Notes under the pieces: model-generated
What the model was told of the DNA's origin: nothing
Seen by the model: only the letters and a program-made list of their open reading frames with translations
Database searches by the model: none
From: an uncultured Gemmatimonadales bacterium
GTDB lineage: Bacteria; Gemmatimonadota; Gemmatimonadetes; Gemmatimonadales; GWC2-71-9
Length of the DNA stretch: 64,000 nt
Direction: 5' to 3'
Assembly (NCBI GenBank): GCA_963825815.1
Contig: CAWGVB010000002.1
Coordinates: forward strand, 147,564 to 211,563
Shown: piece after piece, positions 7,078 through 10,283 of the stretch
Layout: the number at the start of each line of letters is the position of its first letter
How positions within the stretch are numbered: position 1 is the stretch's first letter
Translations under genes and position numbers: made by a program

Positions 7078-8685
7078 ATGACCAACCCAGCTGCGGGGAA
7101 TACCCCGCGGATTGTGGTTCATCCACCCGCCCTGCTGCCCTCGAATCCGGAACGCGGCCCCAGCGATGCTGAGCCGGACGCGGTGCCGCTCCTTCGGACC
7201 GAAGCCGGTGAGGCGCGGAAGCTGGGGACCCTGGTCGACGTCAGCCAGGCGCTTGCCGGACACCTGAGTCTGCCCGCAGGTCTCTCGGACGTCCTACTCA
7301 TTCTGGTCCGGCGCTGTTCGGTACTTCGGGGGGGCGTGGCTCTCTTGCACGAGCAAACCGGGGCCCTCGAGATCAGGGCCCAGGTCGGGCTGCGCCACGA
7401 TCGGGAGGGCGATTCCTACGGCCCCGCCCAGGGGGTCCTGGCAGAGGCGGCCACGACCGGAGAGACTCTCGTTATCGGCCGCCAGGTTGACGGGACCAGC
7501 GAGCACACCGCGCTGGCAGTGCCGATCGTGCTTCACCGGCGCTGCATCGGCTCGCTGATGGTCGAGGTGCGATTCCGTCCTGAGCGCGACGTGGATCGCC
7601 TGCTGAAATTTCTGCGGGTAGTGGCCTCCATGATTTCGCAGGCAGTCCGGATTCACCGGCTGCTCGAAGTGGAGCGGCAAAAGCTGGTCTCGGAAAACGC
7701 CCAGCTGCGGCAGGAGCTGCAGCAACGGAATCCCCTCTTCAGCCTCGTGGGAGCCAGCGGCCCCATGCGCCAGCTGTACGAATCGGTGGCACGGGTTGCT
7801 GGAGGTAACACCACGGTGTTGATCCGGGGCGAATCGGGCACGGGCAAGGAGCTAGTCGCCCAAGCGGTTCACCTGCACTCGCCCCGGGCCCAGAAGCCTT
7901 TCGTCAAGGTGAACTGCGCCGCCTTGCCCGAAACCCTGGTCGAATCCGAGCTGTTCGGCTACGAACGAGGGGCGTTTACCGGAGCGCAGCAGCGGAAGAA
8001 AGGACGCTTCGAGCTGGCCAACGGCGGAACCTTGTTTCTGGATGAGATCGGGGAACTGAGTCCGTCCACACAGGTGAAGCTGCTGCGGGTCCTCCAGGAG
8101 CGAGAGTTCGAGCGGGTGGGAGGAACGGAGTCGGTGCCGGTGGACGTGCGAGTGATTGCCGCCACCAACCGGGACTTGGAGAAAGCATTGGCCGACTCGA
8201 CCTTCCGGGAGGACCTGTACTACCGGTTGAATGTCTTCCCCATCTTCATCCCGCCGCTTCGCGCCCGCAAAGCCGACGTGCTTCCCCTGGCCGATCACTT
8301 CATCGAGAAGTATGCCCGGGAGCACGGGAAGAGCATCCGGCGGATCTCTACCTCGGCCATCGACCTGCTGTCCAGCTATCACTGGCCCGGCAACGTACGG
8401 GAGCTGGAGAACACCATCGAGCGAGCCGTTCTGTTGGCGGACGAAGAGGTCGTTCACGGTTACCACCTGCCGCCGACGCTCCAGACCGCCGATGCCACCG
8501 GCACAGTAGTGAGCACTTCGCTCGACAATGCGGTCGAGGCTTTTGAGCGCAGTCTGATCGAGGACGCGCTCAAGACCGCGCGGGGTAACCGCTCCAGGGC
8601 AGCGAGGCTCCTGGGCACGACTCAACGGGTCATCAGTTACAAGGTCAGGAAATACGGGATAGATCCGGCCCGACTGAAGTCGTAA
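7078..8685 (+). CDS. NifA-like sigma54 enhancer-binding protein (GAF-AAA+-Fis HTH)
   Basis: GAF-like N-terminus; [33 protein letters not shown]-terminal HTH; ATG at 7078 after GGGAG. Confidence 0.93.
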
Positions 8686-8914
8686 TGGCCTCCCTGCTTT
8701 CAGGCCCGGCTTCGGTGCGGGAGGAATAAGCGGCAACCGCAGCAACGAGGAGATTGGCCACGATGATGGGCAACGCCTGGAGCAGGATGCCGTACACCAC
8801 CCAGAGCACCGCAGCGGCGGCCTGGGTCAGGCGGAGAGCTTGCTGGCTCTTCCGGGAGTAGGATGCCAGGAAGACGGCCGTGGCGAGCCATCCCAGCGCG
8901 TCGACGGCTTTCAT
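8645..8914 (-). CDS. Small inner-membrane protein (YgjV-like / PQ-loop-like)
   Basis: 89 aa, three hydrophobic segments, [15 protein letters not shown] motif; ATGA overlap with the HAD gene. Confidence 0.7.
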
Positions 8915-9720
8915 GCGACGGCCGGGTAGCGATCGGGATGGGCGCCCCGGATGATCAGCGAGTCAGTCCGCGCCTTGTCCCACTCCTGCAGCACAAAGCC
9001 GTGGGAGCCGAAGAAGGCCCTGATTGCGCCGGCATCGAGTTGGACGATCTCCTCCAGCACCGGAACCATCACGCTGAGCACGTCATCGCTGAGCACGGTT
9101 CTCCGCGCAATCGGGGTCAGAAACTTGTTCTCCGACACCGCGACCGTCAGTCCATCCAGCCGGTTCACGTGCAGCATGACATGCACGTCCGATCCTCCAT
9201 CTCCGACATAGACAATGCGGTCGCCGCTCAGTCCCAGCTCGGCCCGGAGCTGGTCCAGGACGGCCACCTTCCCGTATCCGGCCGGCACCCGGACGATGGA
9301 CTGGATCTCCCCGTTTCCAGGATCGTAGCGGAAGCGGGTACCGTGGATCCGCTCCGGCGGGACCATTCCGGCCAGCGCAGAACGGATCACTTCCTCTGGC
9401 GCGGCCGAAATGACGCAAAAGGTGAAGCGGAACCCCTGCAGTGAGTCCAGCACCCGGCCGAGCGCCGCGATGTGCTGCTTGAGCCGGATGCGACGGCCCA
9501 CCTCTTCCAGGTCCTCCTTCCGCACCCGCCGGTATTCCGGGTCGTGGAGCAAAAGGTAGGAGAGCTCAGCGCCCTGATTTACCAGATGCATGGACGAGAG
9601 CCCGGCGCACTTTTCCTCGAAGCCGCCGATTCCGAGCATCTCGCTCAGTAGAATGCCGGAATCGTTGAAGCTCAGCGTCTGATCGAAGTCACTGGCCAGG
9701 AGATAGTGCTTAGGGGTCAT
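8911..9720 (-). CDS. HAD-IB family phosphatase (phosphoserine phosphatase/MtnX-like)
   Basis: DFDQTL motif I, ISA motif [14 protein letters not shown] motif IV. Confidence 0.85.
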
Positions 9721-10043
9721 GGCCGCTTGACAACTGCCGGTGAGCGAGCGGCGATCTCCCGTCTCACCAGCGCAGCATCAAGAAAGGCCTGCTCCAGCGG
9801 GACCACGTGAGGACGCGCCGCCTCGGCCGAGGCGCCGGGACGCTCCATCAGTGGCGCGGGCCCGCAGTGAATCACCGGCGCCGCATCGTTCCATTCTCTC
9901 ACCCGCTCTCGAGAGCGGGCGTCGAGCCTGGCAGTGGTGTGGGTGGCAAGGCCCAATGTCGGGCTCTGAGCCTGGAGCACTCCGCCCCGACTTATTCCCA
10001 GGGCCACCAGCATGGGCGCGATGACAGTTGTTCGATGTCTCAT
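9717..10043 (-). CDS. Hypothetical exported protein, first gene of the sigma54 operon
   Basis: GAGGAG RBS, signal-peptide-like N-terminus, ATGA overlap with the HAD gene. Confidence 0.5.
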
Positions 10044-10159
10044 CCTGCCGCACTCCTCTGAAAACATCAAATCTTCGCCTGCTGCTTAGGCTCGGCGAAG
10101 ACAATCAGGTCACGATAGCGCAACGAGCCGCGTATCTCGTGGGGTCAAGCGAATCGAAG

Positions 10160-10174
10160 GCAACCCGCATGCCA
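10160..10174 (-). promoter_or_regulatory. Sigma54 -24/-12 promoter
   Basis: Minus strand TGGCATGCGGGTTGC = GG-N10-GC, close to consensus TGGCAC-N5-TTGC. Confidence 0.8.
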
Positions 10175-10233
10175 GGCATGGCGCGCGCGATTTACCCTCT
10201 CAGAGGAGGGCTGCCGAAGATCGGAGCCAAAGC

Positions 10234-10283
10234 AATCGACCAGATTGTCGGACGCTTCGGGCCTAATCGACAAAATTGTTAGA
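10234..10283. promoter_or_regulatory. Twin upstream activator (enhancer) boxes
   Basis: AATCGACCAGATTGTCGGA and AATCGACAAAATTGTTAGA, 31 bp apart, with a CGAC-N6-GTCG dyad core, 60-110 bp upstream of the -24 element. Confidence 0.65.

Follow-up and report, generated by a model that had tools for sequence, protein, structure and literature searches.

In a metagenome-assembled genome (MAG) of the Gemmatimonadales (3.85 Mb in 46 contigs, 77.6% complete), a stretch of 64,000 nt, hereafter the window, carries a compact cassette of about 3.5 kb (~6830-10300). The cassette consists of a gene for a NifA-like sigma-54 activator and, converging on it, an operon of three genes coding for an exported-type protein (EXP), a HAD-IB phosphatase and a small YgjV-like membrane protein. 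In our reading, to which we assign a probability of about 70%, the operon is the target of the activator and the two are lost or gained as a unit. What was observed directly is how the cassette is built, that it is conserved, that it is unique in the genome, and that activator and operon are linked in relatives. The regulatory logic, in which an activator acts through enhancer boxes on a -24/-12 promoter, is a standard arrangement of an already known kind. What is gained is a comparatively supported assignment of activator, site and promoter in the Gemmatimonadota, which gives a regulatory handle on a very conserved, uncharacterised pair of a phosphatase and a small membrane protein.

The activator gene (7078..8685, plus strand) encodes a sigma-54 enhancer-binding protein of 535 aa with the domain order GAF, AAA+ and helix-turn-helix (HTH), as assigned with Pfam and NCBIfam profiles. 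Sigma54_activat (PF00158) was matched over profile positions 1-167 of 168 with 250.3 bits (cut-off 20.2), the AAA lid was matched by AAA_lid_14 (PF25601), and the C-terminal Fis-type HTH was recognised by PF02954 (HTH_8; 44.1 bits, cut-off 22). The GAFTGA loop, the Walker A motif and the Walker B motif (LFLDEIG) are readable in the translation and are kept in an alignment of 8 orthologues. The GAF match is marginal (PF01590, 24.2 bits for a cut-off of 22.4), and 14 GAF residues are missing in the activators of the source genome and of five close relatives. All other copies of the two activator clades described below retain them. The genome also encodes RpoN (PF04552, 216.3 bits, at G000:C4). 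It contains 15 matches to PF00158, among which 11 score above 170 bits; ten of these were counted as full-length activator genes and one (C2:439 kb) is split in two pieces.

The best NCBIfam model for the activator was nifA (TIGR01817), with 479.5 bits. Beyond the shared domain order, the solved structures nearest to its N-terminal domain are those of Nif-specific regulatory proteins (8jrc, E 1.1e-5, and 9qq6) and NlhH-type GAF domains. NifA likewise works from upstream sites on a -24/-12 promoter, binding of the present activator to its sites being predicted. However, the activator stays under the equivalog cut-off of TIGR01817 (528.85), its GAF domain is 14 residues shorter in the source genome, and the target is a phosphatase and membrane-protein operon rather than nif genes. 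The sites also differ. The upstream activator sequence of NifA is TGT-N10-ACA, whereas the boxes described here are of the form ACA-N4-TGT; as the sequence-only reading of this DNA had maintained, they are unlike those of NifA, and none of the six TGT-N10-ACA matches in the window falls in 10175-10330, upstream of the promoter. NorR-type regulators offer another comparison. They are one-component GAF activators, encoded next to a single target operon, that use multiple short inverted-repeat sites, and this arrangement resembles the cassette. Nevertheless, the activator scores 379.7 bits on the NorR model as compared to a cut-off of 476, and the site sequence differs.

Upstream of the operon, on the minus strand, a sigma-54 promoter of the form TGGCAT-N5-TTGC (TGGCATGCGGGTTGC) was found at 10160..10174, with the GG at 10173-10172 and the GC at 10161-10160. 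Both its position and its predicted start near 10148 agree with what the sequence-only reading had proposed. The site CTGGCATGCGGGTTGCC shows 2 mismatches to the 16-mer consensus TGGCAC-N5-TTGCW, the GG and the GC being ten bases apart. Two 19-bp boxes, predicted to be enhancers, precede the promoter on the same strand. The promoter-proximal box (10234..10252) has the core ACAATCTGGT at 10248-10239 and is centred at about -95, and the distal box (10265..10283) has the core ACAATTTTGT at 10279-10270 and is centred at about -126; these are usual positions for enhancers. The spacing of 31 bp from start to start, already claimed earlier, proved correct, and the boxes are identical at 15 of 19 positions. 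A further claim, that the boxes carry a CGAC-N6-GTCG dyad, could not be upheld. The dyad is present only in the proximal box (10237-10250), the distal one reads CGAC-N6-GTTA, and the dyad is not conserved in relatives. The core conserved across the related loci is instead ACA-N4-TGT within (G)ACAAT..TGT(C/A), that is, GACAAT..TGTC.

The box pair is a rare sequence. With at most one mismatch, the shared core AATCGACNNNATTGT matched the window 3 times for 0.08 expected, a count reached in 0 of 100 shuffles. The third match (15588) sits in a ClpX-like coding frame, as read by eye, and was ascribed to chance. In the whole 3.85-Mb assembly the core has 8 matches at the same tolerance, and only two are exact, namely those of this box pair. 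Genome-wide scans for motifs were performed with degenerate-motif regular expressions. The strict sigma-54 pattern [TG]GGCA[CT]-N5-TTGC[ATC] occurs 24 times in the assembly, counting both strands. When the scan for the box near such promoters that had been suggested earlier was carried out, GACA-N4-(T/G)GT(C/A) was present within 200 bp upstream of 1 of the 24, the promoter described here. The box pair is found once in the assembly.

The operon itself was as had been described from the sequence: on the minus strand, converging on the activator gene, with open reading frames (ORFs) for the exported-type protein, the HAD-IB phosphatase and the YgjV-like protein. Both junctions between them (9720-9717 and 8914-8911) read ATGA on the minus strand. 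The last gene and the activator gene overlap at their 3′ ends by 41 nt (8645-8685), and a terminator scan gave no convincing terminator between the two convergent units. Of 7 loci compared, 6 have a convergent overlap of 41-53 nt and the remaining one has an overlap of 12 nt. Overall, the genes, the promoter and the box pair of the sequence-only reading stand and its dyad does not; on the side of interpretation, the assignment of activator, promoter, enhancers and operon holds, a proposed translation-sensing tier holds only in part, the dyad does not hold, and GAF ligand sensing is weakened in the source genome.

The same arrangement recurs at the same chromosomal site in seven congeners. In these loci, hereafter A-type, a GGDEF gene, a small gene and the gene for a receiver-only regulator, RR1, are followed by the activator gene converging on the YgjV-like, phosphatase and EXP genes, and then by the gene for a second receiver-only regulator, RR2, trigger factor and ClpP. 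The source locus and those of the seven congeners first examined, 8 loci in total, were aligned. The promoter TGGCA(C/T)-N5-TTGC(C/T) is retained in 8 of 8, as are both boxes to judge from the alignment. In the upstream regions, smoothed column conservation reaches 0.75 or more in only three non-coding blocks: the promoter, the distal box (the best conserved after the promoter) and, of the proximal box, the left half. Seven loci have both boxes detected; the spacing is 31 bp in 6 of them and 30 bp in L044. A further conserved element of 17 bp, T2, with the sequence GTT(T/G)C-N5-(C/T)GTGACC, lies on the minus strand at 10108..10124, about +25 to +41 from the predicted start, and is found in the 5′UTR at the same offset in 7 of 8 loci.

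Within the genus, the cassette comes and goes as one block, and natural deletion variants of it exist. The phosphatase gene was present in 24 of the 61 relatives first sampled and in 44 of 103 genus genomes. A search with the GAF region of the activator returned relatives in 53 of the 103, one in each apart from two split or duplicated cases. In 24 of the 103 the activator is of the A-type, being 53-100% identical in the GAF region. The sequence-only reading depended on activator and operon being linked in relatives, and this was borne out: 21 of these 24 genomes carry the phosphatase gene on the same contig within ~2 kb. Two of the three unlinked cases, G072 and G093, are at contig ends; in the third, G034, the activator and EXP genes are kept and the phosphatase and YgjV-like genes are gone. 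These tallies include four unpublished genomes, two with an adjacent A-type activator (G065, G096) and two with an activator of the second clade, B1, and no phosphatase gene (G003, G095). Leaving them out gives 19 of 22 adjacent A-type cases, and 11 of 27 B1-type genomes with a phosphatase gene.

G035 (98% complete) shows the empty site, with RR1 and RR2 only 244 bp apart and nothing between them. Five near-complete congeners without the phosphatase gene were searched, and none of the five yielded a full-length activator relative; elsewhere, the same query detected relatives at E values of 1e-192 to 1e-203. G091 is without EXP. The empty site and the deletion variants therefore argue for gain and loss of the cassette as a unit. 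Such natural variants (the empty site, activator with EXP only, operon without activator) also constitute a ready deletion series for experiments. Direct or inverted repeats flanking the cassette boundaries were searched for and none was found.

In other members of the genus, the phosphatase and YgjV genes stand elsewhere and without EXP. In the six loci of this B1 type that were examined, no activator gene is present within 7 kb. A sigma-54 promoter, mostly GGGCA(C/T)-N5-TTGCC, lies 23-69 nt before the phosphatase start, and upstream of it are one GACA-N4-TGTC box and T2. The B1-type activators, encoded in these genomes at sites unlinked to the operon, are 58-63% identical to those of the A-type overall and 40-47% in the GAF region, with a nearly identical HTH. 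One genome with the operon, G026 (98% complete), has no activator relative, and its promoter is degenerate (GGGGAC..TTGTC), which fits a dedicated pair of activator and promoter. In five genomes with a B1-type activator but without the phosphatase gene, the pattern TGTGACC-N30-60-GGCAY-N5-TTGC was not found. The B1-type activator genes are themselves preceded, at L060-L063, by an A+T-rich region of ~200 bp with repeated CTGTCAA, TTCTG(C/T)C and box-like ACAAT..TGTC sequences, which may reflect autoregulation.

The activator gene of the cassette has a leader of its own. A sigma-70-like promoter (TTGACA, 18-nt spacer, TAGCTT) was read from the sequence at 6836..6865 on the plus strand. The same strand carries a short ORF of 30 codons at 6896..6988, with GGAG 7-10 nt before its ATG and a TAG stop 38 nt before a terminator stem. 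The intrinsic terminator, called by the terminator scan at 7025..7055 (plus strand), has a stem of 10 pairs, 7 of them G-C, and a T-rich tail, and ends 23 nt before the activator ATG. In A-type loci, TTGACA-N17/18-TAG(C/A/G)TT was present in 6 of the 6 loci first examined and in 12 of 14 loci that pass the terminator regular expression, and the columns of the terminator stem are invariant in 6 of 6 sequences. With a strict regular expression, 14 of 30 genus loci were seen to have a terminator right in front of the activator; 4 more, in the own subclade of the source genome, were recognised by eye. The stem is separated from the activator start by 19-39 nt in 12 of the 14 loci and by 65 and 104 nt in the other two, and the short ORF of relatives stops 37-48 nt before the stem. 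Most relatives have a leader ORF of 17 codons with 2-4 Cys, as compared to 28-32 codons and 1 Cys in the own subclade; in some relatives it is leaderless, starting directly after the -10 element.

Several observations weigh against a closed pair of one activator and one operon. Some of them also favour another account, in which the promoter and the boxes are real and served by another of the ~ten other sigma-54 activators of the genome, the adjacency reflecting shared descent in one genus. Synteny alone is weak evidence, since the A-type loci all belong to a single genus and occupy a single chromosomal site. G110 (78% complete) has the boxes, the promoter and the phosphatase and YgjV-like genes with no activator, RR1 or EXP gene at the locus, and the activator was not found elsewhere in that genome either. 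G001, G085 and G123 (73-83% complete) have sigma-54-type promoters before the phosphatase gene, and no activator relative was found in them. B1-type activators, present in 29 of 103 congeners, coexist with a phosphatase gene in 11 and persist in 18 without it, so this clade must have other or additional targets. For the activator of the cassette too, further targets in a 77.6%-complete assembly are possible. The T2 element is downstream of the start in A-type loci and upstream of the promoter in B1-type loci, and a simple two-box enhancer model does not explain it. Finally, GAF ligand sensing, the second tier proposed by the sequence-only reading, is weakened here by the marginal profile score together with the loss of 14 residues kept by the other orthologues; to judge from the alignment, ligand control may be altered or lost in this subclade. 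Against service by an unrelated activator, however, stand the joint gain and loss of activator and operon (the empty site of G035; adjacency in 21 of 24) and the conservation of both the HTH and the boxes between the two activator clades. Moreover, the near-complete genome that has the operon and no activator relative, G026, is the one with the decayed promoter, whereas the genomes with an intact promoter and no activator are all 73-83% complete. We consider service by another activator quite improbable. 'Self-contained', as the system had been called, remains the best description of the A-type cassette; it is not a rule, as the persistence of the sister clade in 18 genomes without a phosphatase gene shows. 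A different objection would be that the sigma-54 motif is unused and that the operon is transcribed by read-through from RR2 or from an unrecognised sigma-70 promoter. In its favour, RR2 lies on the same strand, 45 nt separate its end from the distal box, and the scan showed nothing terminator-like in this gap. Yet the -24/-12 elements are kept in all 8 loci against a background of drifting flanks, and such a sigma-70-like site was not found in 6300-10800. In addition, the upstream genes of B1-type loci are quite different, and yet the phosphatase gene there is immediately preceded by a sigma-54 promoter. Read-through as the source of operon transcription appears barely credible.

The leader leaves more room for debate. 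The translation-sensing tier of the sequence-only reading is supported as far as its anatomy goes, each of the 6 loci first examined having the promoter, the short ORF and a terminator with an invariant stem. Its mechanism is hypothetical; neither an antiterminator pairing nor a codon signature emerged. In the six loci, the best pairing to the 5′ arm of the terminator was no stronger than in shuffled sequences (fraction as good 0.09-0.78), and it overlapped the stop codon of the short ORF in only 3 of 6. Variable sites of the short ORF were evenly spread over codon positions (9, 10, 9) with no excess at the third; the own-subclade set was poorly aligned, which makes that half of the test uninformative. 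RNAalifold, applied to 6 leaders, recovered the terminator and, apart from it, only a weak hairpin in the middle; the covariation term was 1.64 (positive, hence unfavourable). No Rfam family matched the leader or the operon region at E values up to 1 (window 5500-13500 and the loci of three relatives), and B1-type activators lack the leader element altogether. These results, and the strong difference in the peptide between subclades, would suit an independent small gene at 6836-7055 (a small RNA or a peptide of 17-32 aa with its own terminator), the activator being expressed by constitutive read-through. On the other hand, the 19-39 nt between stem and activator in 12 of 14 loci leave no room for a separate promoter, so that the activator mRNA must cross the terminator. 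Furthermore, the ORF, with either a Shine-Dalgarno sequence or a leaderless start, keeps its place between promoter and terminator, and its stop codon keeps its position relative to the stem. A precedent also exists in mycobacteria, where Cys-rich leaderless short ORFs are described as cysteine-responsive attenuators (10.1101/834739). As there, the ORF here is short, is leaderless in some relatives and has 2-4 Cys in 17 codons, and the mRNA of the downstream gene must pass a structured element after it. In contrast to that system, the element here is an intrinsic terminator before a regulator gene and not a sequestered ribosome-binding site before genes of Cys metabolism; the Cys codons do not form a run, and the source genome has a single one in 30 codons. 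An independent small gene thus seems to us a rather unlikely but serious alternative to a leader that controls the activator.

If the activator and the operon do form one circuit, it could work as follows. Dimers of the Fis-type HTH would bind the ACA-N4-TGT cores (within GACAAT..TGTC) of both boxes, centred at about -126 and -95, which their 31-bp spacing would place on the same side of the helix. Next, the AAA+ ring would contact the sigma-54 holoenzyme held at TGGCAT-N5-TTGC and open the promoter. A single mRNA would give EXP as a small secreted or membrane-anchored protein, the HAD-IB phosphatase in the cytoplasm, and a three-helix subunit of a YgjV/SemiSWEET-like transporter. Synthesis of the activator may be gated by the attenuator-like leader, the mRNA from the sigma-70-like promoter having to read through the terminator after the short translated ORF. 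Conversely, transcription of the operon may dampen expression of the activator, as suggested by the 41-nt convergent overlap without an intervening terminator. Excludon-type units (PMC12288877) are alike in having convergent genes with overlapping 3′ ends and no terminator between them; interference would here be deduced from the layout.

The phosphatase of the operon (269 aa; 8911..9720, minus strand) was matched by PF12710 and TIGR01488 (HAD-IB), in the latter case just above the cut-off (45.6 bits for 45). The residues of all four HAD motifs, D11, D13, S105, K151, D174 and D178, are invariant in 13 sequences. An AF2 model (pLDDT 73.6, with residues 175-209 below 50) gave SerB/PSP and MtnX as top Foldseek matches (probability 1.00, TM 0.43-0.50, 14-18% identity), and a sequence search of the PDB yielded no relative below E 0.5. 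The fold, of the cap-bearing kind, is predicted to be closest to those of SerB/PSP, MtnX and ThrH, with which the four HAD motifs are shared; as compared to these, the protein has an extra C-terminal region of ~60 residues. By its motifs and its modelled fold, the enzyme is a HAD-IB phosphatase. More precise assignments were rejected: the PSP-like model TIGR01491, for a phosphoserine phosphatase, scored only 26.7 (cut-off 151.9), and the MtnX-like model TIGR01489 only 34.4 (cut-off 81.55).

The YgjV/SemiSWEET-like membrane protein (89 aa; 8645..8914, minus strand) matched PF10688 (Imp-YgjV) with 26.3 bits (cut-off 23.5), over the first half of the profile only (4-67 of 159). Its nearest atlas clusters are YgjV-family proteins of 77-85 aa. 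Three hydrophobic helices, read by eye, and a similar size bring it close to the SemiSWEET and YgjV members of the MtN3-like clan. The SemiSWEET cut-offs are however missed (NF037968/NF037969, SemiSWEET_2: 27.8 for a cut-off of 80, and 16.8 for 100), and the assignment was not retained. SemiSWEET genes occur in carbohydrate operons, one of them beside an inositol-phosphate phosphatase, according to PMC5972207. In the literature searched, papers that mention YgjV have the term neither in the title nor in the abstract. EXP (108 aa; 9717..10043, minus strand) has an N-terminal signal-like helix and no Pfam or NCBIfam match. Its family comprises 45 clusters in the protein collection, all named 'hypothetical protein' at most. 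An alignment of 30 sequences has 18 invariant columns, with the invariant core His-Cys-Gly-Pro-Ala-Pro-Leu, and indicates a real but orphan family. The AF2 model of EXP was too uncertain for a structure search (pLDDT 64.6, pTM 0.26), and an atlas look-up gave nothing usable (0.77). Taken together, the products would suit an operon that dephosphorylates a compound and then moves the product across the membrane.

The phosphatase family extends far beyond the genus. It occurs at no fewer than 582 loci, 582 of 599 pattern-matched stretches in a collection of species genomes encoding a relative, and is 61-94% identical across two soil phyla. Neighbourhoods were counted in the best 80 of these at least 582 loci, which belong to Gemmatimonadota and Acidobacteriota (65-94% identity). 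A YgjV-like gene directly follows the phosphatase gene in 52 of the 80 by profile search and in ~55 by tblastn. A convergent activator is present in 3, and in 3 more a sigma-54 promoter lies no farther than 100 nt upstream of the phosphatase gene; a fourth match of the promoter expression, in L134 at -171, was ascribed to chance. Among the 80, 16 have a divergent GntR-HTH regulator that carries a periplasmic-binding-like (sugar-binding-like) domain, 8 an MFS gene and 4 a LysR regulator. The pair is a conserved two-gene module under different small-molecule regulators in different lineages. Four genomes of the genus (G024, G008, G017 and G125; loci L053-L055 and L188) carry a second pair of phosphatase and YgjV-like genes (68-70% identity), immediately behind a cold-shock-protein-like gene with its terminator. 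The promoter expression detected no sigma-54 promoter at these second copies, so that some genomes carry two differently regulated copies.

A bolder version of our reading would link these elements further. The leader would be a ribosome-sensing, Cys-responsive attenuator, making the cassette a link between the supply of amino acids and a sigma-54 switch over a phosphoserine-phosphatase-like enzyme and a SemiSWEET-like transporter; the convergent overlap would provide antisense feedback, and the GAF deletion would have rewired the sensor naturally in this subclade. That serine or sulfur amino acids are involved, as suggested by the fold neighbours of the phosphatase and the Cys-rich leader ORF, is a lead only, and we regard this version as a long shot. 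If it were true, it would define a new sulfur/serine-linked 'dephosphorylate and move' module at 582 loci or more of soil Acidobacteriota and Gemmatimonadota. The literature searched contained nothing on the sigma-54 regulons of Gemmatimonadota, supplements, which might list such promoters, lying outside that search. A 2025 survey of sigma-54 regulons (PMC12316311) does not name Gemmatimonadota or Acidobacteriota in its main text, as judged by a term search. Contigs from RNA libraries of three soil studies overlie parts of the activator and phosphatase genes at ~95-99% identity, with 1-12 differences per 150-350 nt. They are a weak hint of expression, strand and start being not readable and DNA carry-over possible, and they are uninformative for 6800-7525 and 9825-10400, which none of them covers.

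Minor features were also recorded in and around the cassette. In the 5′UTR of the operon, just before the ribosome-binding site of EXP, ViennaRNA folded a hairpin followed by a U-rich stretch at 10073..10100 (minus strand). The scan did not call it a terminator, and comparably strong hairpins are present in the operon leaders of relatives. A 15-nt inverted repeat, 87% complementary, joins 10047-10061, in the ribosome-binding region of EXP, to 10200-10214, in the gap between proximal box and promoter; it is probably due to chance, as its second arm is upstream of the predicted start. Matches to the phosphatase or activator gene are split over 2-3 pieces in different frames in G121 (L156 region), G015 (L046), G018 and G101, which are frameshifts, due either to decay or to errors in the assembly of draft MAGs. 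On the left of the cassette, 4550-6727 (minus strand) encodes a conserved block of a GGDEF diguanylate cyclase, a 131-aa protein and the receiver-only RR1. RR2 (10329-10712) flanks the cassette on the right, and the two receiver-only regulators are neighbours in the empty-site genome. A long palindrome, TGCGACAG-N12-CTGTCGCA, lies in the RR1-RR2 spacer of that genome, G035 (L153:1430-1460), and its half-sites are similar to the GACA half-site of the boxes. A predicted lipoprotein of 711 aa with repeated domains is encoded at 10718-12853 (minus strand), in the interval from RR2 to trigger factor; G034 has this gene as well (60% identity), but the other A-type loci examined lack it at this position.

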